Of a stretch of 64,000 bases of DNA, positions 1,863 to 63,472 are shown piece by piece (position 1 is the stretch's first letter; each line of letters starts with the position of its first letter). Made by a program: the position numbers and the translations under genes. The stretch comes from Patescibacteria group bacterium. GTDB lineage: Bacteria; Patescibacteriota; WWE3; UBA101185; UBA10185. A model generated the notes under the pieces. That model made no database searches and was not told the DNA's origin. It was given only the letters and a program-made list of their open reading frames with translations. The DNA is taken from the NCBI GenBank assembly GCA_018825365.1, contig JAHJEV010000004.1, forward strand, positions 27,527-91,526, in the 5' to 3' direction.

Positions 1863-1885
1863 GGTGCCTCCTTGCCTCCTTCAGC

Positions 1886-2167
1886 TCATTTCTGGACAGT
1901 AACTAGATATCTCACTAAACCTGAAAGGAGGTTTAGCTTACCTTTAAATTTGGTTACTGCAGAGGGTTCGAGCTCGAAAACAATTACGTCGAAGTAACCC
2001 TCTGTATCGTGTTTAATCTCATATGAAAGTTTTCTTTTTCCCCAAAAGTTTTGGTCAAGAACTTTTCCACCACAGGAGGTGATTATCTCCTGCAACTTTG
2101 AGGAGAGATCTTTAGATCCCTGATCTCCAAGTGTTACTTTATAAATTGTCATTATCTCGTATTTCAT
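1886..2167 (-). CDS. rpsF: 30S ribosomal protein S6
   Basis: 93 aa, 'YEIMTIY...' S6-like start; conserved operon position upstream of ssb-rpsR. Confidence 0.8.
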   Translation of the reverse strand: MKYEIMTIYKVTLGDQGSKDLSSKLQEIITSCGGKVLDQNFWGKRKLSYEIKHDTEGYFDVIVFELEPSAVTKFKGKLNLLSGLVRYLVTVQK

Positions 2168-2336
2168 AACTATCTTGCTACAACGAAGTAATTATATATT
2201 ACAAACATTACCTGTAAACCCTCAAATTCTATCCTAGTTAGACTTTAGTAAATGTTTAAGTAAAGGAGTAGAAAGATGAAGCTTCCTGGGATAGTACATA
2301 AAATAAAGAAAAAAGGCAAATGCTTTATCAAATTGC

Positions 2337-3942: not shown

Positions 3943-4986
3943 CTATTCTAGAATATAAAACACATTCCTTCCTCCACCTCTTTTAGCAAGTACGTTATAC
4001 TTACAAAGAGTTTCTAACACTTGATATGCTGTTTTGTTGCTTACATTCAACAATTCCCTAACTTTTTTATTAGTGACTGAAGCATTTTTTCTGACATATT
4101 CAACTATCTTCATATGCTTTTCACCTAAAGCTATTTGGTTGAACCCCATATCTCGTGATTTACCTCCTGTTAACAGCATTATTTTCTTTCTTACAGCCTC
4201 TAAGCTTACATCTACACCCTCACAAAAGTATTCTAGCCATTCGGTTAATTCTCTTTTTGTAGAATTAACTGTCTTGAGTGCGGCGTAATAACCTGGTCTG
4301 TCTGAGTTATAAAAATCGTCCAAAGCAAAGAAACGTTTAGTATCAAAGCCACTTTTCAAAAGTATGTAAGTGGCTAGAATACGAGCCGTTCTGCCGTTAC
4401 CATCAATGAAAGGGTGTATTCTAACAAACTCGTAATGAACTATACCCGCAACTAATACCGGATTTAGTTTCTTAAAATCAATTTCGTTAATAAAATCGAG
4501 GAAGTCCTCCATAAGCTCGGGGACTTCCCTAGTAGCAGGAGGTTTGTATGTAATTTCACCTGTAAATCTATTCCCAACTATGACATATTGATTGCCATGT
4601 CTGTATTTGCCACTGTACTCAGGGTTATCCAATGTTTTTGTTGTAATCATTTTGTGAAGTTTCAAAATATCTTTATTCGTTATTTTCTCTACCATAATTA
4701 ACTTATCCAAGTATTTAAGCGCATCAAAGTAGTTTAGAACTTCTTGTCTGTCTTTTCCAAAAGCAGTTACTTCTCTACCTATTTCAAGATTGCTTACTTC
4801 TTCGTAGGAAAGACTGTTTCCTTCAATACTAGTACTGGCGTGAGCACTTCTTATTAGGGCTTCACGTCTTAGGTCCAATTCCCATTTCGGAACCAATGGC
4901 GCGTTTATAATCACTTCCCTTGCAGCACTGATTTTTGTGAGATGGTCTAGTATTAAATGTGTTATTTGATAGCGAGGTTTGAGCAT
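3943..4986 (-). CDS. Fic/DOC family protein (putative AMPylating toxin) with C-terminal winged-helix domain
   Basis: Canonical Fic motif 'HPFIDGNGRTARIL' (HPFx[DE]GNGR). Confidence 0.85.
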   Translation of the reverse strand: MLKPRYQITHLILDHLTKISAAREVIINAPLVPKWELDLRREALIRSAHASTSIEGNSLSYEEVSNLEIGREVTAFGKDRQEVLNYFDALKYLDKLIMVEKITNKDILKLHKMITTKTLDNPEYSGKYRHGNQYVIVGNRFTGEITYKPPATREVPELMEDFLDFINEIDFKKLNPVLVAGIVHYEFVRIHPFIDGNGRTARILATYILLKSGFDTKRFFALDDFYNSDRPGYYAALKTVNSTKRELTEWLEYFCEGVDVSLEAVRKKIMLLTGGKSRDMGFNQIALGEKHMKIVEYVRKNASVTNKKVRELLNVSNKTAYQVLETLCKYNVLAKRGGGRNVFYILE

Positions 4987-5287
4987 TAAGTAGATTGTAT
5001 ATTATTCATTACCTACATACAATAGTTTCTTTATGTTTCCATTACAACACATACATTACTATCATTACTCTATATTCTTCTCAATCGTTACCTACATTGC
5101 AACTTCTGAAGGTAGTGCCTTCACAATTCTTCCGTTCTCACCTCGTTCAACTATTACCCTACTCTTCAAAGGCTCGGGAAGTTCTATTTTTATTTTAAAA
5201 GGAATCCTTTTCTTGGAATTTCCGGGGAATAAATATTTCACTATGCTCAGTGATTCCCTATAGATAAGGACATGAGGTGATTATATC

Positions 5288-50100: not shown

Positions 50101-53100
50101 GTCGGCATCGGGACGACGGGTCCCGTGGCCAATTTACACATTGTTGGCTCAACCTTGTTTGGCTCCTTAGCCGTGGCCGACAAGGTCACTGGCGGAAACA
50201 TCGGTACCGCCGCTGCCACCGTTGATATATATACCAGCTTCAATCTGTCCCAGGCCACCGCGGGCCAAACCATTACCCTGCCCGATCCAACTAATACCAC
50301 GGCCGGCAGATTAGTCTATCTTTCCAATACCGGTTCGGCCACCTTTACTTTTTACAACTCCACGGTTAAAGTCGGCGATACCACCGCGGCCATTTGGGAC
50401 AGTGACTCCTGGAACCTGGCCGGCGGCGGCGGTTTGGCTCAAGGCACGGTTGATAATGCTACTTTAAGATGGAACAACTCAACCACTCAGTGGGTGGAAA
50501 ATACCAGTATTCTTACCGCGTTAAATCCAACAGCCGTAGGTTCTTATGGGTTGTCAGTTGGCAATTCTGGCGCTGTTGCCGGAACCGGATATGGCATTTA
50601 CACCACAAAGACCGGGGGCTCAACTACTAATGTAGCTTTGTATGCATCGGCATCCGGTGGCGCTGCAAATTATGCTGCCATTTTTGATTCAGGAAATGTC
50701 GGCATCGGGACAACTGCTCCCACATATAAACTGGATACCCAACTGGCAAGTAATGGAATAATTGCAAGATTTTCAGCAACAGATGCAAGTTTACTTATAG
50801 GAGCAGATGCTAGTGGTGGATATATACAACCAGGAACAGTAGATAAAACTACAATATATCAATCAAACGGCACATCAGCAGTAGTAACTGTAGACGCTAA
50901 CAAAGTAGGTATAGGAACGACTGCTCCATCAACAAAATTAGATGTGAATGGCACGATTACCAGCCAGACCGGAGCTGTAAACTCCAATGTGGCTGACTCT
51001 TCAACCGCCATCGCCTTTTTACTGGCATCCAATAATACTTTATCCACCCAGGGCGCCAAACTCCTTTCTTTGAAAAACGCCTCAACGGAAAAGTTTTACA
51101 TTGACAAAGACGGCAATCTCTATACGGCCGGCACCATTCTGGCCGGCAATGGCACCGGCATACTGATGATTAACAAATCCGGCGGCACGGTCGCTAAGCG
51201 CAGTTTAGTCGTCATTGACATCACCACCAACTCCGCCTTTGCCACTACCACCACCGCCTACGCCAAATCCAGTTTTGGCGTGATTACCGGCGTCGGGCTT
51301 GGAGTAGCCTATGACGCCGATGGCGACGGCGCGTGCGACGCCGAAGATGTCTGCATGGTGGCGGTTGGCGGCGAAGTGGAAGTTCTTCTGACCAACGCGT
51401 CTACCGCCGTTAAAGGCGACTATATTTATACCTCGGCCACGGCCGGTTCGGGCGTGTCCAGCGCCAAGCAGTTTGACGGCCTTATCGGCATCGTCAGCAA
51501 CACGGCCGGCTCTGCTTCCGGCTATGGCAAAATGATTTTTAAAGTCCAGCCCCAGGTCTCCGGCTCGCAGTTTTTAACTAAAGAAGACACAGCTTTGGCT
51601 AATGGCGGTTATGTGGAGATAGTCCACAATCAGAGCACTAATGATGTGGTGACCAATGGGTGGGTGTACAACACAACCACCAGTAAATGGGAAATAGTTG
51701 GTGATAGTGGGGATGCAATTGGTGGAACAGTAACATATAAAGATGGATATACCATCCATACATTTACCAGTAGCGGAACCTTCACGCCAGTTAGTGCTGG
51801 AAATGTTGAAGTTTATGCTTGGGGTGGTGGCGCAGGTGGTGGGTATAACGCCGGTGCCGGAGGTGGTGGAGGAGCAGCTAATGGTACAGTAACAGTTGCG
51901 GCATCTTCTTATGTTGTTACTGTTGGTGGCGGTGGATTATCTAGGGCACCGGATGCTGGTCCTGGACCAGCAGTTGTTGGTGGAGGTGGTTTAGCAGGTA
52001 ATCTTGGTTATGGTGGTCAAGGCGGAGGTTTATCTGGAATTTTTATAGGATCTTCTTCTCAAGTCAATGCTCGCTTAATGGCTGGTGGGGGCGGTGGTGG
52101 TGCTTACGAAGGTGCTAATGGCGGTGCTGGAGGCGGCACTAATGGCGTTGCTGGTGGCAACGGTTTAGATGCTGGTGGTGGTGGAGGAACACAATCTGCT
52201 GGTGGCACATCTGTTTCCTCTACCGGTTCTGCGCTACAGGGAGGTTCTTCTGGTGCTCAAGGTGATGGTGGCGGTAGCGGTGGTGGAGGTGGTGGTTATT
52301 GGGGTGGAGGAGCTGGTAGTAATACCAATCCTGGTTCTGCTGGTGGTGGCGGTGCAGGATTTTATAACCCAACTTATGCTTCCTCTGTAACATTAACTGC
52401 AGGTTCTGGAACAACACCTGGTGATTCAGGTAATTCTTTAAGAGGTTCTGCTGGTAATGGAGGTGCGGCTGGTAATAATGCAGGTACAGCCGGCATTGTC
52501 ATTGTTAGATATCTGACGAATTCGTTGAGCGCTTTCAAAATCACCCAGCAGGATACCAATACGGTTCGGCTTTATAATTATTCCGGCGCGACGCAATATG
52601 TCAGGTTAAATGTTATTCCTTCCGGCGGCGGCGGTTCGCCGGGCGGCGGCGCCGGGCTCTACACCAATAACAACGCCTCCGTTGCCAACGGCTCCTACAT
52701 CGACGTGGCGCACAACCAGAACACCGCCGACCTGGTAAGCAACGGGTGGATTTACAATACAGCTACTAGCAAATGGGAACAGATTGACAAAGATAGTAGT
52801 GATGCCACTGGCGGAACAATAACATATAGCGGTGGATATACCATTCATACTTTTACAAGTAGCGGAACATTCACACCACCAAATAATGGAAATGTTGAAT
52901 ATCTTGTGGTTGGAGGAGGAGGAGGAGGTCATACGGGAGGTGGTGGGGCGGGTGGATATTTGACTGGAACAGATTCATTATCCGCAACCTCTTACAATGT
53001 TATAGTTGGAGCAACAGTGGGCGCATATACAACTGGAAACAATAGTTCATTCAATGGCAAAATAGCTTCTGGCGGAGGTCTTGGAGGAAATGTAGGTGAA

Positions 53101-56076
53101 GCAGGGGGAGATGGAGGTTCGGGTGGTGGTGCGGGTGCGGGTGGTGGTGTGTATGCACATGGTCACGCAACTGGTACTCCGAGTAGCCAAGGTCATGATG
53201 GGGGCATAAACTATAATAGCTCTCCTTATCCTGCTGGTGGTGGCGGTGGCGCAGATACAGTAGGTTCAGATGGAACGTCTAATGGAGGTGGAAATGGGGG
53301 CGCAGGACTAACATCAAGTATTAGTGGAAGTTCAGTAGGTTATGCAGGTGGGGGTGGGGGTTATAGTCAAGATACAAAACCTCCAGGAACTGCGTCCCAT
53401 GGAGGAGGAGCAGGAGTAGGGCAAACGGGCACTCCCAATGCTGGCACACCTAATACTGGCGGAGGCGGCGGCGGCGGACAGAATGGTGGTGCAGGTGGTT
53501 CCGGCATTGTCATTGTCAGATATTTAACCAATTCTTTAAGTGCTTTCAAAATCACCCAGCTCGATACCAACACGGTACGGCTCTACAACTACTCCGGTAC
53601 TACTCAAAACTTACGGCTTGATGTCATTACCGGAGGATTGGGCCGAAACGCCGGCACCGTGTCTTTGGCGCCGGCTGCCGCCGACGTTGACAGCCAGGAT
53701 AACTCCAACAGCATCTGGATCAACAAAACCGGAGCCGGGGGCTTGCTGCTCAAGCTCCAATCTGCGGCTGCGGATGTTCTCACTTTGGCCAAGAGCGGCC
53801 TGATGACCTTGGCCGGCAGTTTCGTTCCCGCTACCAACGATACCTATGATTTGGGTTCGGACGCCTTGAGATGGCAGTCTGCCTACATCGGGCCCGGGAC
53901 AGTGCACATTGGCACCTCCACCGCTGATGAGTACACTATGTCATATGACACAACTAACAACCGCTTGGGTTTCAATGTCAACGGTTCGGGCGATGCGGAA
54001 ATCGTCTTTGATTCCTCCGGCAACGTCGGCATCGGGACGACGGGACCAGAATCTAAACTACATGTTATGTTTAATAGCGCAGGTACAATCACAGGTTTTT
54101 CCGACGCATTAATTGTTGAAAACAACGCGAATGCTTATTTGAACCTCATTGGTTCAACTTCTGGAATAAAGGCGATTACTTTTGGAGACCCAACTGCCGG
54201 TGTGGTAGATGGTCAAATCACCTACAATGCCCTCGCTACTGACATGCTTGACTTTCGTGTTGCTGGTAATTCTGTAAAGATGGTGATTGACTCTTCCGGC
54301 AACGTCGGCATCGGGACGACGACGCCTGCAGCTAGAACACACATAGTCAATACTACAGCTACCGCACTAAGGTTGGATGTAAATGATGCATTTTCTTATG
54401 CGGAGTTTTATACTGGTGCAACATATCGTGGAAATATAACATATCAGGCGGCAAGTACTGCTTTGCGATTGACTGCTGGAACAGCACAGAACTTACTCTT
54501 AACTGCTGCGGATAGTAATGATAAAGGGATATTTATAAAAACAGACGGCAATGTCGGCATCGGTACAACAGCTCCGAAGAACAAGCTAGATGTATTTGGT
54601 GCTATGGCTATAGGGTCATACGCAGGTGTGAATACGGCACCGAGCAACGGGATGATAATATCTGGCAACGTCGGCATCGGGACGACGGGGCCGGGGGGCA
54701 AGTTAAGCATTTATGATACGTCAGCCGGTGCTAACGATAGGGTACAGATAGTCAGCGATCTAAGTTCGAGCGTGGACCAGTTGGTACTCCATCATTATGG
54801 GACGGCAGGAACTCAGCTTGCGTCATTTTGGAGAGGCAGGGGCACTTTCTCTTCACCAACAGCTTTATCGAATGGTGATGCAATCGGTCAATTTAATTTC
54901 GTAGGATATGACACAAGTAACACGGCTCAGACAGGGGCAGGATTCGGGGCAGTAGTAGATGCGGCTCCAGGAGCTGGAAGCGTTCCTATTGCAATAAGAT
55001 TTTTAACAGGTACCACAGGAGGTGGGACGGAACGGGTCAGAATTGATAGTACCGGCAACGTCGGCATCGGGACGACGGGGCCAGTGAGCTCGCTAGAAAT
55101 AAAAGGTCCGAACACTGTAAATACTCCGCGCTTAACGCTCAACCAACTTTATAACGCAGGAGCGTCGGCGTGGGGTATTGATTTCACTCGCACCTACGAC
55201 ACCGGTGGTGACGGACAAAACGCGGGGTACATTCGTATTGGCCGTGCCGGGGGAACCTCAAATTCGGGTATGTTTTTTGGGCTTGGTGACCAAGGTACAG
55301 TCGCAGATAGAATGACTATTCTTCCAAGCGGCAACGTCGGCATCGGGACGACAGGTCCAGGGTATACATTAACAGTTGCAGGTACTGCCTGGGTTACAAG
55401 CGGCGCCTGGTCTGGTTCGGATGTTAGATGGAAAGAAAATATTCAGCCTATAGCAGGAGCCTTGGACAAAGTACTGCAACTCTCCGGAGTTTTCTATAAC
55501 TGGAGAAAAGACGAGTTTCCAGAAAATAAATTTGATGACAAAACTCACTTGGGGTTAATTGCTCAGGATGTAGAAAAAATTGTTCCCGAACTGGTAACCA
55601 CAGGACCAGACGGCTATAAAGGTCTTGATTATAATGGATTAGCGCCTCTTTTAATTGGGGCCGTACAGGAACAGCAGGGGCAAATCTCGCTGCTGTCAGG
55701 ACAGCTGGTAAGCTTATCAAATATCGTCCGTGTTGAAGGCTCGTGCGTTACCGGTGACACATTGCTTCCCATCCGCCGCCGACGCAAAAGTCTAAGTGGT
55801 CTGGAATCCGAGGACGACAATGGGTTATTTGATTACCTGTTGATCCGTATCGATGAAATACTACCTGGCGATGAAGTCTCGTCCTTAAATGAGTTTACAG
55901 GCTCTCTAGAATGGCATAAAATAAATGCCTCGATGGATATGGATATTAAGGAAGTTTTTGAGCTTACAACCAAATCAGGAAAAGTAATCAGGACAACAGC
56001 CAAGCATCCTTACTTAACTTTGTTGGAAGATAAATTGGAAGGTAACCCTGTAGTTAGTAAAGAAGGAATAAAATAA
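44182..56076 (+). CDS. giant (3964 aa) cell-surface protein: N-terminal HTH, single TM, tail-fibre-like 'GNVGIGTTxP' repeat array, tandem Gly-rich modules, peptidase-S74 intramolecular chaperone domain, C-terminal split-intein N-fragment
   Basis: Single uninterrupted ORF. HTH 'LKVSQAAKILGISPSSLRRFEKEERI' (aa 22-50). TM 'RVFALISTLVLVSTILIFPV' (aa ~184-204). Many 'SGNVGIGTT(A/N/G)P..KL(D/E)V' repeats. S74 motif 'SDVRWKENIQPIAGALDKVLQLSGVFYNWRKDE...LIAQDVEKIVPELV'. Final 110 aa 'CVTGDTLL...VIRTTAKHPYLT...' are intein blocks A and B. Confidence 0.85.
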   Translation: MSLPAQENAQRNNDTKYDFQRFGSLKVSQAAKILGISPSSLRRFEKEERITSERAPGNNYRTYRLDLVNRLKAELQNDGTNKQLLVKRKKLRKTQKYSPEKINTGLIKTKPGIIPSPAPVFNMDIPSAPYHVKPYVPVSPSLEKLDESIKTKGDKEENLNLPEVVPSYEKIVTYKPAVAKLSLGRVFALISTLVLVSTILIFPVNFSKVLSDFRSKVQNGLVNAKNLSNVLSTLNFGSKKLAEKKSTAPSELLANVLAASARVSNYVYNINIPVFFKKPATFEDTLTAEQLATFNAAITTTNVTFKGTGLINNLLGIDVVTKTTLERDLDIDGQITSTGMGDTVISKGIITGPMLNSNITYSGKFNFSGTIALKGTTITSTAAELNQLAGLSYESGGIFYGDGTGFYQDTSYLFWDSTNKNLGIGTSSPTATLEIISSGTGTSTSTLWTKNSTGTTGLFVQNSGNVGVGTTAPATALEIGGSGNLRIGGLTALSGVYTDADKTLVSTPPTSGTLGYWQRNGTYVSPATITDNVGIGTTAPSALLEVNGTSWLRGGTAPTSGLFVNSSGNVGIGTTNPGAKLDVRGGLNTGTNGTEFTVSDTGIVTAATSFLAPTFDTATGVAMNIGTATQTALTLGRAGATTTINGSGLTVGPTAWTATPTISGLITATSGLTANGALTANSTFTLGDDGDLGSIDTSDWNITTTGAMTGISGIANDGAYTQSGTSANTFTGTSTFSNATYSAFFTGGNVGIGTTEPGSKLEVAGTFTVSGSNLTTLGGNLTVTGTTWTATPTISGLVTMTSGFDSNAASTVSSLTIDANTGNALTISGTGFTTDITLQNGETIDNDTDGTILLTAPTTKTSGNLYAGTSGTGTITSGLINGQTISSAANFTGTGIFASTLTASNGLTLTTGALNLTSTSGTVNLATTFNQVGATTINTSGTANTTIGNTAGGTITIGAASGSDLALNDAQWSITGAGAANFTGLTSSGTITFSGLTASRGVFTATGGQLATSATSQYLIDSLSDETGSGALVFSNSPAITTPTITTSATVPLLIGGTAANSTLTLRSTSGTGITGADILFQTGNNGATEAMRILNSGNVGIGTTNPQYALEVGGSGNVRIGGLSASMGVYTDANKQLTSTPPTSGGLGYWTRSGTTLWPTANTDNLTTLGNIGIGTTSPTSSLHLNASAPSGIIFNLAYGASTVIDNDLTGAKFNLDDGTVVATNQNITGLEVKLPTVTNTHTTGTKTLKGFYVNFGTGSGLNQTGVGGTTTYNALHVDLPALTQTAGTLNINGLYVNSPSSITTGGTASGLYINSTGVNAGALYGVNVSNITAGAGTERAINIGSGWDSVLAVNGTVIISGSGVTQTAGGGTGFSTYTKGDVLYSDAANSLAKLGIGTVNQVLSVTAGGVPGWGTMDGTSCVNCLISNPTGDQIIAPTGQGTTGLVVRQTSTSSPTDDIFAVTNSAGDNKYFYVDYAGVVNIPSIGSSSGDQLTIEPGTDKYALKLLGTNVAANSLQLIDSYNTSGTIFDLDYPAARTLSGALVGMDIDLSTNLTVTNQSVTAQKITLPTFTNTNTTGTKSYLGMQIAPPGAGGVNQNGIGGTSEYILADLTMPALTQTAGTLNAYGVKIITPSSITTGGTAYGVNINASGVGAGTLYGMNVSNIAAGAGTERAINIGTGWDYGIYSETTGNSYFAGSVGIGTTNPTAALDVAGGIKATTFNGNIISTGTGTLTLGASKTLTVNDSTVLNTNTVTFGGTEILTLTAGKNVTFADSFTTSGSNSLTLTTTGSTNTTLPTTGTLATLAGIETFSSKTFSGNTYFPGSGIWDAGGNIGIGTTAPKNKLDVFGAMAIGSYAGVNTAPSNGMIISGNVGIGTTGPGATLHVQKGAGVTAVSDSNAVFQLTSDGNASNMWFNIKTGANGGTNGTFGFAEAGTIKGGILWDVANASFNLSSDVNTTATSRQVIIKAGNVGIGTTGPVANLHIVGSTLFGSLAVADKVTGGNIGTAAATVDIYTSFNLSQATAGQTITLPDPTNTTAGRLVYLSNTGSATFTFYNSTVKVGDTTAAIWDSDSWNLAGGGGLAQGTVDNATLRWNNSTTQWVENTSILTALNPTAVGSYGLSVGNSGAVAGTGYGIYTTKTGGSTTNVALYASASGGAANYAAIFDSGNVGIGTTAPTYKLDTQLASNGIIARFSATDASLLIGADASGGYIQPGTVDKTTIYQSNGTSAVVTVDANKVGIGTTAPSTKLDVNGTITSQTGAVNSNVADSSTAIAFLLASNNTLSTQGAKLLSLKNASTEKFYIDKDGNLYTAGTILAGNGTGILMINKSGGTVAKRSLVVIDITTNSAFATTTTAYAKSSFGVITGVGLGVAYDADGDGACDAEDVCMVAVGGEVEVLLTNASTAVKGDYIYTSATAGSGVSSAKQFDGLIGIVSNTAGSASGYGKMIFKVQPQVSGSQFLTKEDTALANGGYVEIVHNQSTNDVVTNGWVYNTTTSKWEIVGDSGDAIGGTVTYKDGYTIHTFTSSGTFTPVSAGNVEVYAWGGGAGGGYNAGAGGGGGAANGTVTVAASSYVVTVGGGGLSRAPDAGPGPAVVGGGGLAGNLGYGGQGGGLSGIFIGSSSQVNARLMAGGGGGGAYEGANGGAGGGTNGVAGGNGLDAGGGGGTQSAGGTSVSSTGSALQGGSSGAQGDGGGSGGGGGGYWGGGAGSNTNPGSAGGGGAGFYNPTYASSVTLTAGSGTTPGDSGNSLRGSAGNGGAAGNNAGTAGIVIVRYLTNSLSAFKITQQDTNTVRLYNYSGATQYVRLNVIPSGGGGSPGGGAGLYTNNNASVANGSYIDVAHNQNTADLVSNGWIYNTATSKWEQIDKDSSDATGGTITYSGGYTIHTFTSSGTFTPPNNGNVEYLVVGGGGGGHTGGGGAGGYLTGTDSLSATSYNVIVGATVGAYTTGNNSSFNGKIASGGGLGGNVGEAGGDGGSGGGAGAGGGVYAHGHATGTPSSQGHDGGINYNSSPYPAGGGGGADTVGSDGTSNGGGNGGAGLTSSISGSSVGYAGGGGGYSQDTKPPGTASHGGGAGVGQTGTPNAGTPNTGGGGGGGQNGGAGGSGIVIVRYLTNSLSAFKITQLDTNTVRLYNYSGTTQNLRLDVITGGLGRNAGTVSLAPAAADVDSQDNSNSIWINKTGAGGLLLKLQSAAADVLTLAKSGLMTLAGSFVPATNDTYDLGSDALRWQSAYIGPGTVHIGTSTADEYTMSYDTTNNRLGFNVNGSGDAEIVFDSSGNVGIGTTGPESKLHVMFNSAGTITGFSDALIVENNANAYLNLIGSTSGIKAITFGDPTAGVVDGQITYNALATDMLDFRVAGNSVKMVIDSSGNVGIGTTTPAARTHIVNTTATALRLDVNDAFSYAEFYTGATYRGNITYQAASTALRLTAGTAQNLLLTAADSNDKGIFIKTDGNVGIGTTAPKNKLDVFGAMAIGSYAGVNTAPSNGMIISGNVGIGTTGPGGKLSIYDTSAGANDRVQIVSDLSSSVDQLVLHHYGTAGTQLASFWRGRGTFSSPTALSNGDAIGQFNFVGYDTSNTAQTGAGFGAVVDAAPGAGSVPIAIRFLTGTTGGGTERVRIDSTGNVGIGTTGPVSSLEIKGPNTVNTPRLTLNQLYNAGASAWGIDFTRTYDTGGDGQNAGYIRIGRAGGTSNSGMFFGLGDQGTVADRMTILPSGNVGIGTTGPGYTLTVAGTAWVTSGAWSGSDVRWKENIQPIAGALDKVLQLSGVFYNWRKDEFPENKFDDKTHLGLIAQDVEKIVPELVTTGPDGYKGLDYNGLAPLLIGAVQEQQGQISLLSGQLVSLSNIVRVEGSCVTGDTLLPIRRRRKSLSGLESEDDNGLFDYLLIRIDEILPGDEVSSLNEFTGSLEWHKINASMDMDIKEVFELTTKSGKVIRTTAKHPYLTLLEDKLEGNPVVSKEGIK
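49705..49824 (+). repeat. ~120-nt perfect intragenic direct repeat, copy 1 (copy 2 at 54571-54690)
   Basis: Identical stretch 'gctccgaagaacaagctagatgtatttggtgctatggctatagggtcatacgcaggtgtgaatacggcaccgagcaacgggatgataatatctggcaacgtcggcatcgggacgacggg' at both sites. Confidence 0.8.
54571..54690 (+). repeat. ~120-nt perfect intragenic direct repeat, copy 2
   Basis: See copy 1; 4.87 kb apart in the same reading frame, encoding 'APKNKLDVFGAMAIGSYAGVNTAPSNGMIISGNVGIGTTGPG'. Confidence 0.8.
55417..55743 (+). other. peptidase S74 / intramolecular chaperone auto-processing domain (sub-feature of the giant CDS)
   Basis: 'SDVRWKENI...FYNWRKDEFPENKFDDKTHLGLIAQDVEKIVPELV' matches the tail-spike/endosialidase C-terminal chaperone domain (SDxRxK Ser-Lys dyad region). 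Confidence 0.7.
55744..56073 (+). other. split-intein N-terminal fragment (Int-N; Hint blocks A and B), DnaE-split-intein-like
   Basis: Block A 'CVTGDTLL' at the extein/intein junction (…VEGS|C); block B 'GKVIRTTAKHPYLT', close to the cyanobacterial DnaE Int-N block B 'GSVIRATSDHRFLT' as recalled; ORF stops 20 aa later, as in natural Int-N. Confidence 0.75.
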
Positions 56077-56201
56077 ATGAGTAAATTTTTAAACAGTTTT
56101 TTAACTAAATATCTCACGATTACAAGAGGAAGTGCCAAAATTTCCCAAACTAGTGAGATTGGGACCTCGCCAATCCGTGAGATGGGGGAGACTAAAAATC
56201 T

Positions 56202-56780
56202 ATGAAAATTAACCAAAATATGAAAAAATTCCAAAAAACTCTGGAATTAAAAGGCAAAACGGCTGTCCTCATTGATTGGGCTAACGTTCACGGATGGGCA
56301 GAATTGGGTCACTCTGAAGTTAATCTAAAAAAGTTGTTTAAATACTTAAGAGGGTACAAAAAGATTAAAGCAATAAATCTATATTTCGGTAAGGATACTC
56401 ATCCAAAATCAAAAAAGTTTTTAGGTGAAGCGAAGAAAATAGGTTTTAAGGTAATCACAAAACCAGTTAAATATATCAAGGTGGCTGTATTCCAAAATAA
56501 ACCAATTTTCCGACGAAAGTGCGACTTTGATATGGAAATTTGTATTGATATTCACAAACATTTAAGCCAAAATTATGATAGTTTCATTTTCTTTTCTGGC
56601 GATGGGGACTTTGAGCCTCTTTATAGACTATTAATCGAAAGACATAAACAGGTTATTGTAATATATGGACAAGGCCATCTGGGAAGGGAGATTTACTCAA
56701 TAAAACAGGGGTTATATAAACTCGATATTAATAAGTTGGGGTCAGTAAAAAATGACCCCCCGGTTTCCCGGAGGGCGTGA
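56202..56780 (+). CDS. NYN-domain (LabA/YacP-like) protein
   Basis: 'KTAVLIDWANVHG' N-terminal acidic motif and 'FFSGDGDFEPL' NYN signature; 192 aa. Confidence 0.7.
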   Translation: MKINQNMKKFQKTLELKGKTAVLIDWANVHGWAELGHSEVNLKKLFKYLRGYKKIKAINLYFGKDTHPKSKKFLGEAKKIGFKVITKPVKYIKVAVFQNKPIFRRKCDFDMEICIDIHKHLSQNYDSFIFFSGDGDFEPLYRLLIERHKQVIVIYGQGHLGREIYSIKQGLYKLDINKLGSVKNDPPVSRRA

Positions 56781-56906
56781 TTAAAAGTATGTTAACAAAA
56801 CTAGCCAGAAAAGTCAAATTAGGAAAGATCGGCAAAGACCGCTTAACTCAGGAATTTATACCTGGCGATCAGCGATTCGAGCCGATTAGTAGGTAAAGGA
56901 TAACGT

Positions 56907-58232
56907 ATGTCTAAATTTTTATCAAATATTTTTAATTTAATGAAGGCCCATAAACCTGGGGTCCCCGACCTCGCTAAATCGCCTATAGGTGGTGATGTAC
57001 CAACTACACCGAACAAGCAAGACGGACATCTCACCTCCGCTCAGGGCAAGCCCATAATGGACTCTTTTGCCTGCCCTTACTGCGCAAGCAAACACTTTGT
57101 CAGAAGAGGTTTTAGACAGAAAAAAATGGAAAAAGTCCAGCTTTATCTTTGCCTGGAGTGCAACAAAACCTTTACCCAGCATATAACCCGCGGCAAACAC
57201 TATCCTTTACCGGTTGTTTTCGATGCTATCAGCACTTATAATCTTGGGTATTCTCTGGAAGAAACCTGCAGGATAATTAATAGCCGCACCGCCGGCGTTA
57301 CGTCAGCAGTTTCCGAGGCAGGTCCCGCACTTTCGGCATCGACTTTATCAAATTGGCTTAATGAAACATCAGAGCTCTGCCGATTTGAGCGCATGCGCGA
57401 ATATGCCCTGAAAAAATACTCGCCAGAAAATATGGTTGTTACCGCAACTCTCGCCCACCGACAGCTTTACCGCTACCGCTTCCATAGAGCCAAATGCGAA
57501 CTTATCATCACTGAAGATTTTAAACACCACCGCTTCGGGCCTTTGCAGGAATTTCTAGAAATGGTGCCCAGTGAGTGTCCGCACCAATATTTCCAAGAAG
57601 GCTTAAGGGCCAGTGAAGTGCCTTTGACCTTTTCCAAAACCCAAATGATCGTCAGAAGCAAGCAAAACTACGCCACTGCGCTTGCCACCTTTATCCTGCA
57701 GTCGGTCAAGGATAGAAAACTGCGCCATGACGCTATACAAAAATTTATGCTGGCCAACGACACGGTAACTGTCGCCACTGAAGTACCGGTTTACTTAACC
57801 CACGATGATTTGGAGCATTTGCAGACACAGCTAGGGTTTGAAATATATGACTCCCCCATTAAAGGAGCCCGTTCGGCCGCCTTGGAAGTGTGTACCGACC
57901 TGCCAAAATTAATCACTGGCCACATTGACATACTGCAAATAAGAAACGGCCAGATTCATATTTTGGATTTTAAACCTGACGCCGCAAAAGAACAGCCGAT
58001 TGAACAGCTGACTTTGTATGCTATGGCGCTGTCCAGACTTACCGGTTTAAGATTATTCGAGTTTAAATGCGCTTGGTTTGATGAAAAAGACTATTTTGAA
58101 TTTTATCCATTACATGTTTTACTTAAAACAAAGAAAAGTCAGAGACGCCGAAAAGTCTATACCATGGAAGGAGTTTATAAAATTAATCAGGATGAAAGAA
58201 AGGTAACAGAAATTAAACCTATACACCTATGA
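56907..58232 (+). CDS. Zn-ribbon + PD-(D/E)xK nuclease-fold protein (candidate free-standing homing endonuclease)
   Basis: N-terminal 'CPYCASKH...CLECNKTF' C4 ribbon; C-terminal 'ITGHIDILQIRNGQIHILDFKPD' (D...D/ExK-like core); locally higher GC than the genome. Confidence 0.55.
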   Translation: MSKFLSNIFNLMKAHKPGVPDLAKSPIGGDVPTTPNKQDGHLTSAQGKPIMDSFACPYCASKHFVRRGFRQKKMEKVQLYLCLECNKTFTQHITRGKHYPLPVVFDAISTYNLGYSLEETCRIINSRTAGVTSAVSEAGPALSASTLSNWLNETSELCRFERMREYALKKYSPENMVVTATLAHRQLYRYRFHRAKCELIITEDFKHHRFGPLQEFLEMVPSECPHQYFQEGLRASEVPLTFSKTQMIVRSKQNYATALATFILQSVKDRKLRHDAIQKFMLANDTVTVATEVPVYLTHDDLEHLQTQLGFEIYDSPIKGARSAALEVCTDLPKLITGHIDILQIRNGQIHILDFKPDAAKEQPIEQLTLYAMALSRLTGLRLFEFKCAWFDEKDYFEFYPLHVLLKTKKSQRRRKVYTMEGVYKINQDERKVTEIKPIHL

Positions 58233-58645
58233 CCTATCAAAAATCATACAGCCCTAAAAGACCGGTGAAAAGCTTCCAGGATTTGGAAGTGTACCAAAAG
58301 TTATTGGCTCTCTCAGTTGCTGTAGCCAAAAGAGTCAAATCCGAAAAAGTGACTGCCATTGCCTTAGATTTGCCGGTTAAGATAGCCACAGCTCACTCAT
58401 CGAGATTTGGTGATCAGACAAAGGCAATTTACGCTCTGGATGAAGTAATGCTTAATTGCAATCTGCTTGTTGTTTATTTGGAACAATACCGGGATATTGA
58501 AAATCCGTCTGCTAAAGAGGCAGAGAAGATTGAATCTGAATTTTTTGAGGAGCAGATTAAAAGTCTTTTGTCAGTCAGAATGAAAATTTTACATTTACAA
58601 AATTCGTGGAAGAAATTCGCCAAAGAATATGCCAAACAAAAATAA
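58229..58645 (+). CDS. four-helix-bundle protein (23S rRNA intervening-sequence protein family, TIGR02436-like)
   Basis: 'FQDLEVYQKLLALSVAVAKRV...' matches the four-helix-bundle/IVS protein N-terminus (FxDLxVWQKA); 138 aa; 4-nt overlap with upstream gene. Confidence 0.7.
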   Translation: MTYQKSYSPKRPVKSFQDLEVYQKLLALSVAVAKRVKSEKVTAIALDLPVKIATAHSSRFGDQTKAIYALDEVMLNCNLLVVYLEQYRDIENPSAKEAEKIESEFFEEQIKSLLSVRMKILHLQNSWKKFAKEYAKQK

Positions 58646-58883
58646 CAAGAAAAATTTAATAGACACCCACCCTGTAGGCAGGATCTTTAATATTGGCAAG
58701 GAAAAGGCCGTCTGGAAAAGAGTAACCGAGCTAAAACCCGGGGTAAAAATTGCTGTCGAAAAAGATGGAAACCTCGCTTGGGATGAAATTGTTGAAATAA
58801 AATCCGTCGGCCTCGAAAGAGTCTGGGACATTGAAGTTGAAGGCACGCATAACTTTGTCGGCAACGGTATCATCGCCCACAAT
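58629..58883 (+). other. Int-C portion (blocks F/G) of the split intein
   Basis: 'VWDIEVEGTHNFVGNGIIAHN' similar to the DnaE Int-C '[22 protein letters not shown]' as recalled; splice junction at 58883/58884. Confidence 0.75.
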
Positions 58884-60638
58884 ACTTTTCTCAACGATCT
58901 TGTTGGGATAGGAACTACAAATCCAGCAGATACAACCTTAAACTTATCAAGTACAAGCCCGTCTAGTATAAATATGCTGGATGTTGACGGAGTAATAAGA
59001 ATCAACCAATCAGTAGTCACCGACACAGTTTCAAACACCTTATACAACAACTCGGATGTATTAATGTGGAATGATAAACAAATATCAGCCGGACCTAACC
59101 TGTACTCGATAAACGGATCCGTTTCCAACGATGAGTATTTATCGCTACAACACAAACAGGGTACAACTGACATACTGGTCACAGCATGGGTAAACGACGG
59201 AACAAAATGGGTAAAGATTGCAAATCTAGGAGACCCGTCAGATACAACCGGGGATTACTACTTCACTACACCGGACAGCGATACGGTCCGTTTACACAAT
59301 AAATCCGGAAACTCACAGTCATTAAAACTAGACATATTCGTATCCGGAGCTAATGTTGCAGAGTGGTACACACTCGATAACACATTTGCTGACACTAGCA
59401 CAGCTTCAGATGTTTCAGATATCTCAGACACTTCGGATACTTCAGATGTTATAACTACCGGTACATCCCCAAGCACTGAAATTACCCTACCAGGTTCATC
59501 ACCTGATACCTCAATCACCGAGTCTACGTCCGTACCTAATACTGAAATTACTAAAATTGAATCCGGTGATGTTGTTGCACTATCTACAAATATTGACGAT
59601 TACGGAATGCCGATGATTAGAAAAACAAGCACCTATTACGACTCGAGTTTATTTGGAGTAGTTACTACAAGTGCCAGCCACGAAATGGGAATACAAAGAG
59701 ATGGAAGAAAACTTGTTGCCCTGTCAGGTAGAGTCCCTGTAAAGATAGATCCCGCTTCTTCAGATATTAAACCCGGAGACTTCATTACAGCATCATCTCT
59801 TGAGGGACATGCAACCAAAGCTGAAATGCCGGGAAGAGTCATTGGTACAGCGCTGCAGTCGTGGAATAAAAATTCCGGTGACAAAAAGGTACTGGTTTTA
59901 GTCAATCCAACATACAACTCACCTACCGCCCAAGCACTCACATCAGCTTTATCATCTGACAGCTCTACATCTGGAGATATTTCAAATGAAATGCTAACTC
60001 TAAGAGATCAGATAGTTGCCCTATCTAACAATCTTAAGGACACACTATCTTCCCTTGGGATGACATTAACTAAGGATGAGGTTTCAGAAAAAGACACGCT
60101 GGCTATTAACTCAGACATGCACATACTTGGGGATGTGACACTTACTAACCTGACCGTAACTGGCGATATTCAGGCAGGAATGGTCACAATTGACACACTT
60201 TCTAACTCAGTAGACGTGCTTGGATCTTCCTGCTATAACTCAGAAACTAATACAATCAATGACACATTATGTAATGATCAGGCTTTACATCTTCAAAAAT
60301 CTGGCTCCGGTATGATTGACATGTTCGACGGAAAGATAGTTGCCAAACCAAACGGAACATTGGTTATAGAAAACTCCATAGAAACCAAGAAACTTGTCAT
60401 CAACACATCTGATGTAGAATCCGCAGCTGCAGGAAAAACAACCATCAAAGCCGGTGACACCAGTATCACAATAGATACGAGCGCTGTAAATGACAAATCC
60501 ATAATCATGATAACTCCGGAAAGACCGGCTACTGTCGGAAGCAAATACAAGCAGGAAGGAAAGTTTGAAATAGTCTTGAAGGAGGCTCAGGCGGAGGATC
60601 TTGATATAAGCTGGATAATTGTGGATAGAAAAGATTAA
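58629..60638 (+). CDS. split-intein C-terminal fragment (Int-C, 85 aa) fused to the C-terminal extein of the tail-fibre-like surface protein (669 aa total)
   Basis: 'RVWDIEVEGTHNFVGNGIIAHN|TFLNDLVGIGTTNP...' carries intein blocks F and G ending in HN with +1 Thr; extein resumes the GIGTT repeat type of the upstream giant protein; S/T/D-rich linker; C-terminal globular region. Confidence 0.8.
   Translation: MPNKNNKKNLIDTHPVGRIFNIGKEKAVWKRVTELKPGVKIAVEKDGNLAWDEIVEIKSVGLERVWDIEVEGTHNFVGNGIIAHNTFLNDLVGIGTTNPADTTLNLSSTSPSSINMLDVDGVIRINQSVVTDTVSNTLYNNSDVLMWNDKQISAGPNLYSINGSVSNDEYLSLQHKQGTTDILVTAWVNDGTKWVKIANLGDPSDTTGDYYFTTPDSDTVRLHNKSGNSQSLKLDIFVSGANVAEWYTLDNTFADTSTASDVSDISDTSDTSDVITTGTSPSTEITLPGSSPDTSITESTSVPNTEITKIESGDVVALSTNIDDYGMPMIRKTSTYYDSSLFGVVTTSASHEMGIQRDGRKLVALSGRVPVKIDPASSDIKPGDFITASSLEGHATKAEMPGRVIGTALQSWNKNSGDKKVLVLVNPTYNSPTAQALTSALSSDSSTSGDISNEMLTLRDQIVALSNNLKDTLSSLGMTLTKDEVSEKDTLAINSDMHILGDVTLTNLTVTGDIQAGMVTIDTLSNSVDVLGSSCYNSETNTINDTLCNDQALHLQKSGSGMIDMFDGKIVAKPNGTLVIENSIETKKLVINTSDVESAAAGKTTIKAGDTSITIDTSAVNDKSIIMITPERPATVGSKYKQEGKFEIVLKEAQAEDLDISWIIVDRKD
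60486..60638 (+). repeat. 3'-terminal ~150 nt of the Int-C/extein gene (master copy of a thrice-repeated segment)
   Basis: Sequence 'taaatgacaaatccataatcatgataactccggaaagaccggctactgtcggaagcaaatacaagcaggaaggaaagtttgaaata...ctggataattgtggatagaaaagattaa' recurs at 62003-62152 and partly at 63579-63600. Confidence 0.8.
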
Positions 60639-60736: not shown

Positions 60737-61930
60737 TTACGTTGGATTATTTTCCGAGAGTATGCCAAATCTTCCCAAAATTAGCGGTAATTTTTCCATG
60801 TTGATAACTTCAACCGGAAGATGATATAGGGAAGTGAAAGCCTTAGATTTAGACGAACTCTTTGACCATTTTATCTCAAAAGCTTGTATTTCCCCTTTTG
60901 AATTTTTTACCACCAAGTCAACCTCGCTATTGTTTCTCGAACGCCAATAATAAAGCACACTTTGTTTGCCTAACAAAAGATTCCTCTTAGCAAATTCCGC
61001 AATAACCCAGTTTTCCCAAAGTTTACCGATATCTCCTCTATTGTTATTTTCCTGCATCTCACCAATCAGGGCATTCCTTACTCCTGTATCCCAAAAATAG
61101 ATTTTATTGCTTTTGGAAATTTCCTTTCGGGGATTGGTACTATACGCAGGTAGTTGAAAAATAACAAAAGTTTCTTCCAACAGATCTAGATATTTTACGA
61201 CTGTTTGTCTGGAAATACCCAAACTTCCAGCAATTTCATTAATCGAAACAACTGACCCAACTTGATAAGCTAAAAGAAGCAGAAGCTTTCTTAAGGTCCC
61301 CGGGCTTTTTACTAAACCAACTTGCAGGATATCTTTTAGAAGATAGTCAGAAATTAAATTATTAAGATACTCCCGTTTATCTAAAGTTTTAACTGCCTCA
61401 GGATAACTACCATAAATAAGACTGGTAAATAAAATTGAATCTGTTTGATCCCGAAAATTCCCTTTATCCAATCTCAATTCCGGCTGGTACCAGCTTTGGG
61501 AGGAAATTATCTCCGAAAAAGTTAATGGCGGCAAAAATAATTTAATATTTCTGCCGGTCAAAGTTTCTGCAGATTGATCAAGTAAATTCAAGCTAGACGA
61601 TCCTGACAGAATTATTTTGGTTGTAACCCCGAAATCGTACCATCCTTTCACTACTCTACTAATTTCGGGTACCCTCTGCGCCTCATCTACAATTAGAATT
61701 TCGGGGGAACCCAAAAGAGATAGGGAGGATTTCGGATCCAAGGGCACGGACGACAACAGCCTTTGTCTGTCAACCTCAATATCTAAATTAAGATAAGTAG
61801 TTCTTTCCAGCTTGAAGGCATTTTTCAAAAGCGTGGTTTTTCCAACCTGCCTAGCACCCAACAGCAACAGAACTTTTCCCGAGTCAAACCACTTCTTTAA
61901 ATTATCTTCTGCTAAGCGACTTATGTACAT
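60737..61930 (-). CDS. AAA+ ATPase (AAA_14 + DUF4143-type 'ATP-binding protein')
   Basis: Walker A 'LLLGARQVGKTTLL', Walker B 'ILIVDEAQ'; 397 aa. Confidence 0.8.
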   Translation of the reverse strand: MYISRLAEDNLKKWFDSGKVLLLLGARQVGKTTLLKNAFKLERTTYLNLDIEVDRQRLLSSVPLDPKSSLSLLGSPEILIVDEAQRVPEISRVVKGWYDFGVTTKIILSGSSSLNLLDQSAETLTGRNIKLFLPPLTFSEIISSQSWYQPELRLDKGNFRDQTDSILFTSLIYGSYPEAVKTLDKREYLNNLISDYLLKDILQVGLVKSPGTLRKLLLLLAYQVGSVVSINEIAGSLGISRQTVVKYLDLLEETFVIFQLPAYSTNPRKEISKSNKIYFWDTGVRNALIGEMQENNNRGDIGKLWENWVIAEFAKRNLLLGKQSVLYYWRSRNNSEVDLVVKNSKGEIQAFEIKWSKSSSKSKAFTSLYHLPVEVINMEKLPLILGRFGILSENNPT

Positions 61931-62209: not shown

Positions 62210-63472
62210 TTAGAACTGCAGGTTATTCCCACTCACCAAACTATAAAATGGAAGAAAGTAAACACGAGTGCCACCTATTGTGGTTTCTTTGCTTTCACCA
62301 AGGTGAATAATATAACCCGCTTTTGGCTTATATTTCGCCAGAAAATTTCTAAACGAACGCGGAATTTCTATTTTTGAAATCTTCGCGTACTTAGCCTCCA
62401 TTGGTAACACATCCAGCCCTTTTTCTAAAACAAAATCCACTTCAGCCTGATCCCGTGTTCGCCAGAAGTGTATCTGAGTTGGTGAAAGCCCTAAACGCTC
62501 TCTCAGTAAATTAAAAACAACGTTTTCAAACAAGTGTCCGCCCAAATGGGCGGGAATCTCAGATAAGCCAAAAAGGCCCAGGAGCCAGTTTCGAAGCCCT
62601 GTATCATAAAAATAATAGGTGGGAGTCTTAGTAATTTCTTTTCGGGTGTTACGATAATATGGGGTAACTTTCTTGATGATGAAAGTCTGCTCTAAGTAGT
62701 ATAGGTAATGCTTAATGGTTCTTTCGTTAAGATCAACGGTTGAGGAAAGTTCAGCTATATTGACAAGACTTCCGATTTGGGAAGCAACTATTTTAAGAAG
62801 CTTGGTAAATGCATCTGTTTTCTCCAAGTTCAAAAGATCACGAATGTCTCGTTCGACATAGCTTCTGTAAATCTCCTGCATTTCTTCTTGTTTTGAAGTA
62901 ACTGAATCAGCAAGAACTACCCGCGGGTATCCTCCAAAAACCATGTATTCGGAAAAAAGACGCTCCGTCTTACCCTTTTCCAGCTCAAAAAAGTCTTGTA
63001 ATTTACCCTCATATAAATAATCGGTTCTAAAATTGACAAACTCCTCAAAGCTTATGGGCTCAATGCTAAACAGCCGCTTTCTGCCGGCCATCGACTCCAG
63101 AATCTTTGCTTTAAGCTCTAAACTGCCAGAGCCAGAAATAATGAACTTAAGAGGTAAGTTCATATCAAAAATACCTTTTAAAAAAAGCCCGACATTTTCC
63201 TTGCGTTGTATTTCATCAATGAAAACAAACGCCTTTTCTTTCCCTACTGCAAGCTCAATATGAGATAGCAATGTCGCCTGAGAGGTGAACTTAACCTTGT
63301 CCTCATCGTTATCCAAGCTCAACCAAACTGTTTTTTTGCCTTCTTCTTCTAGCTTCTTCTTCAAAATACGCATGAGGTATGTCTTACCAACCTGCCTCGG
63401 ACCAATAAGAATAGTCATTTGATCTGACCCCAGATGTTCTTCCAACCTAGTAAGTATTTTCCTCTTTATCAT
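62210..63472 (-). CDS. AAA+ ATPase (AAA_14 + DUF4143-type), paralogue of 60737..61930
   Basis: Walker A 'ILIGPRQVGKTYLM', Walker B 'FVFIDEIQ'; 420 aa. Confidence 0.8.
   Translation of the reverse strand: MIKRKILTRLEEHLGSDQMTILIGPRQVGKTYLMRILKKKLEEEGKKTVWLSLDNDEDKVKFTSQATLLSHIELAVGKEKAFVFIDEIQRKENVGLFLKGIFDMNLPLKFIISGSGSLELKAKILESMAGRKRLFSIEPISFEEFVNFRTDYLYEGKLQDFFELEKGKTERLFSEYMVFGGYPRVVLADSVTSKQEEMQEIYRSYVERDIRDLLNLEKTDAFTKLLKIVASQIGSLVNIAELSSTVDLNERTIKHYLYYLEQTFIIKKVTPYYRNTRKEITKTPTYYFYDTGLRNWLLGLFGLSEIPAHLGGHLFENVVFNLLRERLGLSPTQIHFWRTRDQAEVDFVLEKGLDVLPMEAKYAKISKIEIPRSFRNFLAKYKPKAGYIIHLGESKETTIGGTRVYFLPFYSLVSGNNLQF

Follow-up and report, generated by a model that had tools for sequence, protein, structure and literature searches.

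The question raised by this locus is why an intein in a giant surface-fibre gene should lie in two halves with three other genes between them. The locus is part of a stretch of 64,000 nucleotides (nt), here called the window, from a Patescibacteria group bacterium of the WWE3 lineage (assembly GCA_018825365.1, contig JAHJEV010000004.1). A first-pass annotation of the window, made by inspection of the letters, had regarded the three genes as one cassette. For comparison the window and 89 fetched relatives were scanned with local profiles, giving a set of 90 loci. This set did not bear out a three-gene cassette. The conserved unit consists of a nuclease gene and a gene for a four-helix-bundle protein; a homologue of the latter follows the nuclease gene in 86 of the 90 loci, and the third gene, encoding an NYN domain, is present in only 13 at variable positions and is secondary in the window. 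With a probability of about 0.55 this pair can be read as a selfish, homing-type nuclease module that occupies the endonuclease slot of a DnaB-like intein, the fibre being restored by trans-splicing.

Gene order, split intein and insertion site

The fibre gene is divided into an upstream open reading frame (ORF) of 3964 amino acids (aa) at 44182-56076 and a downstream ORF of 669 aa at 58629-60638. These ORFs and the genes between them are all on the + strand. The upstream ORF comprises the N-extein, which is the fibre protein's N-terminal portion (44182-55743; recognized by the ORF, the MerR_1 and Peptidase_S74 profiles and the repeat count), and the N-terminal intein half Int-N, 110 aa plus stop codon (55744-56076). 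The downstream ORF opens with the C-terminal half Int-C of 85 aa (58629-58883) and continues as the C-extein (58884-60638), which runs from 'TFLNDLVGIGTTNP...' to the end of the fibre C-terminal domain, '...DISWIIVDRKD', and was recognized by the ORF and an intein-free homologue. As annotated before, the 2.5 kb between the halves hold three intact, partly overlapping genes according to the ORF listing: a gene of 192 aa for an NYN-domain (PIN-like, LabA/DUF88-type) nuclease (56202-56780; PF01936, E 5.8e-21), the gene of the predicted 441-aa nuclease (56907-58232) and that of its 138-aa four-helix-bundle partner (58229-58645). The last two overlap by 4 nt (ATGA), and the 138-aa gene overlaps the downstream ORF by 17 nt. 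Of two gaps of about 125 nt in this stretch, one (56077-56205) is not spacer: it is a mini-ORF of 42 codons that begins right behind the Int-N stop, overlaps the NYN start and is what remains of the 5' leader that the nuclease gene originally had.

The identical layout, including the 42-aa mini-ORF, was found in three further independent assemblies (NCBI, ENA, JGI), in which the mini-ORF was called as a gene. The layout is therefore not an assembly artefact. A protein 98% identical to the window nuclease is annotated in a Patescibacteria metagenome-assembled genome (MAG), and the ATP synthase subunit genes and two tRNA-Thr genes nearby indicate a cellular genome. The tRNA-Thr genes were the only RNA elements detected in the window with Rfam; no group I or group II intron and no intervening sequence was found. 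Consensus sites for a promoter or terminator of the module's own did not exceed the shuffled expectation. A repeat search of 55500-59000 gave short direct and inverted repeats at chance level and no terminal inverted repeats around the module; the only meaningful repeat (D4) was the duplicated start of the nuclease gene.

Int-N starts at Cys1 (55744) and reads 'CVTGDTLL...TAKHPYL', with the opening 'CVTGDTLLPIRRRRK...' and block B 'TAKHPYL', while blocks F and G of Int-C read '...VWDIEVEGTHNFVGNGIIAHN' and end with '...GIIAHN' before the +1 Thr at 58884. Both halves are matched by the Intein_splicing, intein_Nterm and intein_Cterm models of Pfam and NCBIfam (Int-N by PF14890 and TIGR01445; Int-C by PF14890, E 6.5e-10, and TIGR01443, E 9e-9). 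When joined, they span a complete mini-intein and align to the solved DnaB mini-inteins 4o1r (E 1e-16) and 1mi8 (E 7e-13), the nearest relatives with a known structure. Like the Npu and Ssp DnaB mini-inteins, the window halves have the class 1 residues Cys1, TxxH and HN; unlike these, the window intein is naturally split, has a long Int-C (85 aa), a motif 'RRRRK' behind block A and a +1 Thr, and resides in a fibre. The host coding region is broken into two ORFs on the same strand, the first ending with Int-N and the second opening with Int-C, and the stop codons and separate ORFs set the window apart from a canonical endonuclease-containing intein. The same Int-N family was present in 33 loci, with Cys1 in all 32 that had a readable start and the block-B His in 33 of 33; Int-C ended with AHN followed by Thr in every locus with a readable C-terminus. 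These splicing residues are kept although the mean pairwise identity between loci is only roughly 50-64%, and their conservation suggests that the two halves restore the fibre by trans-splicing. A run of 4-6 Arg/Lys residues, such as 'RRRRK', lies behind block A in every readable Int-N, i.e. all but the 5'-truncated one of L064, and may play a part when the split halves associate. In the window Int-N (55744-55790) this run is followed by an acidic patch (ESEDD). The Int-C of six loci (L003, L018, L036, L048, L053, L079) contains an insertion of 25-40 aa between 'THNFVAGH..' and the final strand '..FGGIxAHN' before the Thr.

The window fibre protein has a MerR-type helix-turn-helix (HTH) domain at its N-terminus, 17 'GIGTT' repeats and a Peptidase_S74 intramolecular-chaperone domain just before the intein (about 55417-55599, E 2e-18). 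At most loci the N-extein ends with '..IGTTxPxxKLHVxG(S/N/Q/H)' and the C-extein starts with 'T(Y)ISGNVGIGTT..'; the corresponding ends in the window are '..VRVEGS' and 'TFLNDLVGIGTTNP', and the junction peptide expected after splicing is VRVEGS-TFLNDLVGIGTT. Judged from these extein ends, the intein is inserted at a boundary of the fibre's own repeat unit, between '..KLHVxGx' and 'TYISGNVGIGTT..', which explains the presence of two inteins in one gene (L006, L062). Homologues of the C-terminal domain of the window C-extein form the end of fibre genes that have no intein, for instance that of L025 ('...NWWVVN'). Intein-free contiguous fibre alleles across the junction of S74 and C-terminal domain were found in L046, L054, L055 and L025, with a poorly conserved linker. 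Regex searches found no uninterrupted junction in the 90 loci, and no precise empty-site pair was obtained; in metagenome contigs a degenerate-codon scan yielded 10 uninterrupted stretches encoding '..GIGTTxPxQKLHVEGN TYISGNVGIGTT..'. L022 and L025, tried as an empty-site pair, were too divergent to define a precise empty site.

Some features of the fibre itself are unusual. At its N-terminus (window 44182-45081) the MerR-type HTH (aa 26-72) is followed at aa ~184-205 by a hydrophobic stretch, LGRVFALISTLVLVSTILIFPV, a possible transmembrane segment. It is odd for a fibre of almost 4000 aa to carry a DNA-binding head, and relatives occur with Phage_int_SAM-type N-termini. In phage fibres Peptidase_S74 is normally found at the C-terminus and cleaves itself off; in the window it is internal, and the intein and a C-extein of 584 aa follow directly behind it; in L019 and L039 the intein lies just ahead of S74. 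The GC content of the fibre gene is 0.47-0.52 at 46000-54000 against a background of 0.375, which is likely due to the Gly/Thr/Ala-rich repeats rather than to foreign origin.

The nuclease, its partner and the NYN gene

The annotation had described the 441-aa protein as a C4 zinc ribbon combined with a PD-(D/E)xK-like core, and profiles, alignments and models agreed with this description. The protein consists of a disordered leader, the zinc ribbon, a helical/HTH region and the PD-(D/E)xK core. It matched the IS1/IS1595-type Zn domain NF050000 with 30.6 bits (cut-off 28) and PDDEXK_1 (PF12705) with 22.6 bits, barely over the gathering cut-off of 22; many homologues have a precomputed PF12705 match. 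Alignments were made with 23 and 94 homologues. Invariant in the 94 homologues were C59, C82, C85, E292, D341 (GHID), D354-x-K356 (LDFK), Q367 and Y371, while the fourth cysteine of the ribbon, C56, was kept in at least 90% of them. By sequence the conserved motifs correspond to the RecB/Cas4 motif set. The best fold matches are PD-(D/E)xK-containing proteins, and the alpha-beta-beta-beta-alpha-beta core of this fold, with E292, D341, D354 and K356 as invariant catalytic residues, is present. The confidence (pLDDT) of the AlphaFold model is moderate overall, 63.6; means of 10-residue blocks are 74-89 in the Zn ribbon (51-90) and 73-85 in the core (331-400). No solved relatives beyond generic Zn ribbons were found by sequence. 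Unlike the Vsr-type nucleases in the paper on fractured genes, the protein lacks a Vsr-type core with an EDxHD motif and has the RecB/Cas4 motif set instead. Nor is it an IS1/IS1595 transposase, since the full model, with a cut-off of 100 bits, scored 28 and matched just the N-terminal 110 positions, and the catalytic part is PD-(D/E)xK and not DDE. From these motifs the protein is predicted to be a site-specific nuclease. In several homologues (P0016, P0021, P0052, P0062, P0072) two linker regions (alignment A1, columns ~180-290 and 465-525) are lengthened in frame by variable insertions, the largest of about 90 aa. Several of these share a similar peptide ('GVDPPGVEPGRLGLSVQSSEP...'), which gives the impression that a small repeat element entered in frame.

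PADLOC gave weak single-domain matches only (NYN 1e-8, Cas4-like 2.7e-4, DruK 0.026), with no system-level match and none at all for the four-helix protein. The raised GC content reported for the region applies to the nuclease gene (0.44 against a background of 0.375), and not to the NYN gene (0.34) or the 138-aa gene (0.376). In 53 loci the GC content of the nuclease gene correlated with that of the host (r = 0.78); since it follows host GC, it was rejected as a sign of foreign origin.

The assignment of the 138-aa protein to the four-helix-bundle family of intervening sequences was upheld. The window protein has no PF05635 match at E <= 1, while 11 of 31 family members match, with a best E of 7.7e-6. 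AlphaFold2 (AF2) predicts a four-helix bundle for it with good confidence (pLDDT 88; helices 17-35, 39-58, 63-94 and 103-137), and the top Foldseek matches were 2rld, 2gsc and Avd chains with TM scores of 0.5-0.79 and E values of only 0.08-0.7, such weak values being usual for helical bundles. No solved relatives were found by sequence. Transitive homology together with the model thus indicates that the protein, of which 1527 homologues were found, is probably a divergent member of the family formed by the 23S-rRNA intervening-sequence proteins (IVP) and Avd of diversity-generating retroelements (DGRs). As in the IVP and Avd proteins of PF05635 (2rld, 2gsc, 4dwl, 8ub7), the bundle is small (about 120-140 aa), its motifs are at the same helix positions, and it is encoded inside or beside a selfish intervening element. 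Unlike classical IVP, the window subfamily is divergent and has the motif 'AHSxRF', where the classical family presumably carries 'AEGxxR'. Avd is an oligomer that assists a nucleic-acid enzyme as its partner, and Avd-type proteins act in tail-fibre diversification in DGRs; the partner of the window protein is a nuclease and not a reverse transcriptase.

The window NYN protein contains LIDWAN (D25), CDFDMEICID (D108, D110, D116) and SGDGDF (D134, D136), which we take to be the conserved acidic motifs of the family. In the 13 loci with an NYN gene it lies behind the four-helix gene, between both genes or ahead of the nuclease gene, the last position being restricted to the window among split-intein loci. 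The 125 nt behind the window Int-N stop encode MSKFLNSFLTKYLTITRGSAKISQTSEIGTSPIREMGETKNL followed by a stop codon, and this peptide is 76% identical to the normal nuclease leader of L001, a locus whose nuclease begins right at the Int-N stop codon. The present leader of the window nuclease is only 24% identical to the original one, and homology resumes at 'GKPIMDSFACPYC'. Judged from this scar, the NYN gene and the new leader (about 56188-57049, ~860 nt) are a later insertion into the 5' end of the nuclease gene; the orphaned and the replaced leader indicate that it occurred after a layout as in L001, L006 and L010 existed. Stand-alone genes of the window NYN family gave 728 matches in many contexts: some lie upstream of genes for S74 fibres, others in the company of PemK, HepT-MNT and IVP genes, next to SmpB or in metabolic neighbourhoods. 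The NYN gene is therefore regarded as a separate small mobile gene and an occasional passenger, not as part of the conserved module. In L062 (5378-6649, + strand) a contiguous single-ORF intein of the window intein's family contains an in-frame NYN domain in the endonuclease position ('CVTGDTKLRRRRRKS ... NYN ... IVAHN', followed by 'TYISGNLG'). No paper linking NYN domains to inteins, or split inteins to Patescibacteria, was found in the literature searched, the coverage of which was incomplete.

Distribution and contexts of the pair

The pair was located between Int-N and Int-C in 30 loci. Neither half was present in 38 loci with both flanks readable, and no locus had only one half. Inspection of 10 of the 38 non-intein loci confirmed that there was no intein. 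Of the 38 loci, 28 have a fibre gene with GIGTT repeats at a distance of 0.2-2.8 kb upstream, on the same strand, and its S74 domain is often about 1-1.5 kb away; a fibre gene is almost never found in the downstream flank of about 9.4 kb. L089 and L077 have toxin-antitoxin or IS200-like islands instead of the fibre context. In WWE3-type loci an ORF of 140 aa with an LPD3 domain (large polyvalent protein-associated domain 3) lies between the intein-less fibre gene and the nuclease gene (L025, 1129-1548; L023, 1121-1555). Intein and non-intein contexts were interleaved on a neighbour-joining tree of the nuclease, which indicates repeated context switches. Occurrence of the same genes away from inteins had been named beforehand as evidence that would speak against the annotation, and it was indeed observed for the pair (38 of 68 loci) and, in many unrelated contexts, for NYN; but 28 of the 38 sites of the pair are near a fibre gene. 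Given this proximity, and the stand-alone inserts reported by Dassa et al. (2009), the non-intein contexts do not refute a role in homing.

The minimal content between intein halves is exactly the nuclease and its partner (1.7-1.9 kb). Additional cargo includes NYN, a classical 23S_rRNA_IVP gene (L003), a 184-aa protein of no assigned family (L001) and further unassigned stretches of 0.3-1.1 kb. Three kinds of intermediates were found. L006 has, in the same host gene, a contiguous intein of 357 aa that belongs to this family. In five loci (L036, L048, L050, L064, L067) Int-N continues in frame into the nuclease without a stop codon, giving a run-on of 446-569 aa, so that a fusion of N-extein, Int-N and nuclease may be made. 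The third kind is the module standing free behind fibre genes that lack an intein.

The nuclease family comprises more than 2072 matches and 2315 clusters at 50% identity, the best 150 matches being all <=594 aa in length. It was present in 220 of 185,579 species genomes, with a patchy yet broad distribution over many lineages of the candidate phyla radiation (CPR). All matches with a lineage name in the source were CPR/Patescibacteria, while some third-party MAG titles read Gammaproteobacteria or Bdellovibrionales. IMG/VR contigs and GenBank phages contained no relative, and a phage origin was rejected for lack of relatives in these viral collections.

Proposed mechanism, rival explanations and related systems

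According to the homing reading, the DnaB-like intein at the repeat boundary of the fibre would be split because a free-standing selfish module occupies the position of the homing endonuclease; a module of two genes cannot become an in-frame intein domain, so that the intein would stay split. The whole block would be transcribed together with the fibre gene. The overlaps of start and stop codons, together with promoter and terminator signals not above chance, suggest such co-expression. The nuclease would then cut element-free fibre DNA in or close to the repeat junction; an oligomer of the four-helix-bundle protein would probably help to assemble or target it. Repair would copy intein and module into the cut allele. 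The host would suffer no loss, since Int-N and Int-C would trans-splice the fibre halves. The same module could also persist on its own, as a homing gene that stands free a short way downstream of fibre genes lacking an intein, and the NYN gene is a separate mobile gene, a later arrival in the nuclease gene's 5' end. A wider reading, in which nuclease and Avd-like partner form a two-subunit homing endonuclease of a family to which this role had not been ascribed, the NYN domain of L062 is a further, so far undescribed kind of intein endonuclease domain and the elements, along with split inteins at the repeat boundaries of the fibre, let Patescibacteria exchange and re-join fibre modules, is tentative and, taken jointly, possible rather than probable.

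Several observations weigh against the homing reading. The nuclease is 50-78% identical across lineages, which is unusually conserved for a selfish gene; this conservation and the GC content that tracks the host suggest a long residence or a role beneficial to the host. Closely related genomes that differ in the presence of the element at one and the same site were not found, so that mobility is deduced from the phylogenetic interleaving only. The correlations between pairwise distances of nuclease, partner and intein halves were weak (0.11-0.45) and uninformative on co-evolution. Furthermore, L099 has an uninterrupted junction-like site 1.4 kb upstream of a divergent, partner-less nuclease homologue; probably the protein motif of the junction is not by itself the target, or the copy in L099 is inactive. 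This homologue (1812-3008) has a GC content of 0.31. A second, truncated C-terminal copy lies at 4883-5083 in the same locus, and RelE-like and HEPN/nucleotidyltransferase genes are located between the two copies.

A role without homing would be played if the pair were a passenger, selfish or of an addiction or defence type (e.g. a nuclease toxin with its inhibitor), that accumulates, as NYN, classical IVP and toxin-antitoxin genes do, wherever insertion is tolerated: in the intein's endonuclease slot and in the 3' flank of fibre genes. The variable extra cargo in the gap between the halves, the abundance of MazF/PemK, RelE, HicAB, HepT-MNT and IS200-like genes at non-intein loci, the tight overlap of the two genes, as in toxin-antitoxin pairs, and the weak PADLOC matches to Cas4-like and DruK nucleases would all agree with this. 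Such a passenger is nevertheless thought unlikely: a DNA-binding module of Zn ribbon and HTH and a strict same-strand site 3' of one gene type fit a targeted element better, PADLOC recognized no system, and the order of nuclease first and small partner second corresponds to the less common order in toxin-antitoxin pairs. The high conservation of the nuclease would be expected of a domesticated recombination module, in which breaks at the repeat boundaries of the fibre promote exchange of its C-terminal part (the tip) and the split intein joins the modules at the protein level. The link to the 3' regions of fibre genes, which is constant with or without intein, points in the same direction, as do the widely varying sizes of the C-exteins (669, 937, 3166 and 3536+ aa), the copies within one genome that each lie behind their own fibre paralogue (L038, L044, L046), and the role of Avd in tail-fibre diversification, with 8ub7 and 4dwl among the Foldseek matches. 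Domestication is judged quite improbable in view of the small number of carriers, about 220 of the species genomes scanned, which marks the module as dispensable, of the lack of a reverse transcriptase, template repeat or silent cassettes near the window locus, and of copies that are possibly frameshifted (overlapping, split matches) or truncated (L028, L033, L039, L081, L099).

Two further explanations appear very remote. One is a site-specific transposon with an IS1-type DNA-binding domain fused to a PD-(D/E)xK catalytic domain, which the Zn-binding domain of IS1/IS1595/IS256 type and the many copies on short contigs might suggest. Short contigs are, however, explained by the repetitive fibre gene upstream, and neither terminal inverted repeats nor target duplications exceeded chance around the module, the start and stop codons overlap the intein halves precisely in many loci, and the context is restricted. 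The other is a dead gene, i.e. a fibre broken by insertions whose halves are not rejoined and whose intein halves are decaying remnants. The S74 autoprocessing domain just before the break might allow the N-terminal product to work alone; but decay is hard to reconcile with the retention of the splicing residues (Cys1 32/32, block-B His 33/33, His-Asn and Thr wherever readable), with intein halves always kept together, with long intact C-extein ORFs, and with a layout repeated in independent assemblies.

The organisation itself is known. Fractured genes, with a host ORF broken in two on one strand, were described by Dassa et al. (2009, NAR 37:2560; PMC2677866) for gp41, NrdA/J, IMPDH, DnaE, ligase and terminase, mainly in phages and with one GIY-YIG or Vsr-like gene. 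Their endonucleases also occur as stand-alone inserts, and a route was proposed by which endonucleases enter inteins and inteins become split (PMC2677866). The window agrees with this arrangement, as the annotation had suggested, in its broken host ORF, split intein and separate predicted endonuclease gene between the halves (ORFs, intein profiles, motif set). The contiguous intein, the Int-N-nuclease run-ons and the free-standing module are intermediates of the kind that the gene-breaking model of Dassa et al. predicts; together with the NYN-bearing intein they document how inteins become split. Unlike the earlier loci, the host is not a DNA-metabolism enzyme but a giant, repeat-rich surface fibre of cellular Patescibacteria, the insert consists of two genes, a RecB/Cas4-type nuclease and an Avd-like partner, with optional cargo (NYN), and insertion took place at a motif that recurs in the gene, not at a unique one of an active site. 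The differences concern the host type, the nuclease family (neither GIY-YIG nor Vsr/EDxHD), the obligate Avd/IVP-like gene, the extra cargo and the repeated insertion motif. Fractured genes, so far described for phage-type DNA-metabolism enzymes, are thereby found in non-enzymatic giant surface proteins of cellular CPR bacteria.

A homing endonuclease with a PD-(D/E)xK superfamily fold is I-Ssp6803I. The same fold is present in I-Bth0305I and the EDxHD (Vsr-like) homing endonucleases, and the I-Bth0305I family was found in fractured genes (PMC3239194). In contrast to I-Bth0305I and I-Ssp6803I, the window nuclease has the RecB/Cas4 motif set (GhID ... hhD-x-K ... Q..Y) and an N-terminal IS1-type Zn ribbon/HTH, and comes with an obligate second gene. 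Its best profile and fold matches are the nuclease domains of Cas4, RecB, AddB and Dna2 (PF12705), with which it has the order of catalytic motifs in common, but no Fe-S cysteine cluster and no helicase or CRISPR context was seen, and the N-terminal DNA-binding module is different. In collaborative or intronless homing, as by the T4 seg/mob genes or the cyanophage psbA intron with F-CphI, a free-standing nuclease gene adjoins its target gene, and the carrier is protected by an intervening sequence that interrupts the cut site. Judged from gene arrangement, the window nuclease likewise lies beside its presumed target gene; the intervening sequence is an intein and not a group I intron or none.

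Both families are large (more than 2000 nuclease and more than 1500 partner homologues, 220 species genomes), and all members are annotated as hypothetical proteins. The pairing of a RecB/Cas4-type nuclease with an Avd/IVS (intervening sequence)-type bundle could make the function of such bundles outside DGRs directly testable, and protein engineering might make use of the many natural split inteins (Cys1, +1 Thr) that the loci provide. Directly downstream of the window fibre gene are two paralogous ATPase genes with AAA_14 and DUF4143 domains (60737-61930 and 62210-63472, both on the - strand). In a sister assembly (L112) an AbiEii gene lies behind this pair.

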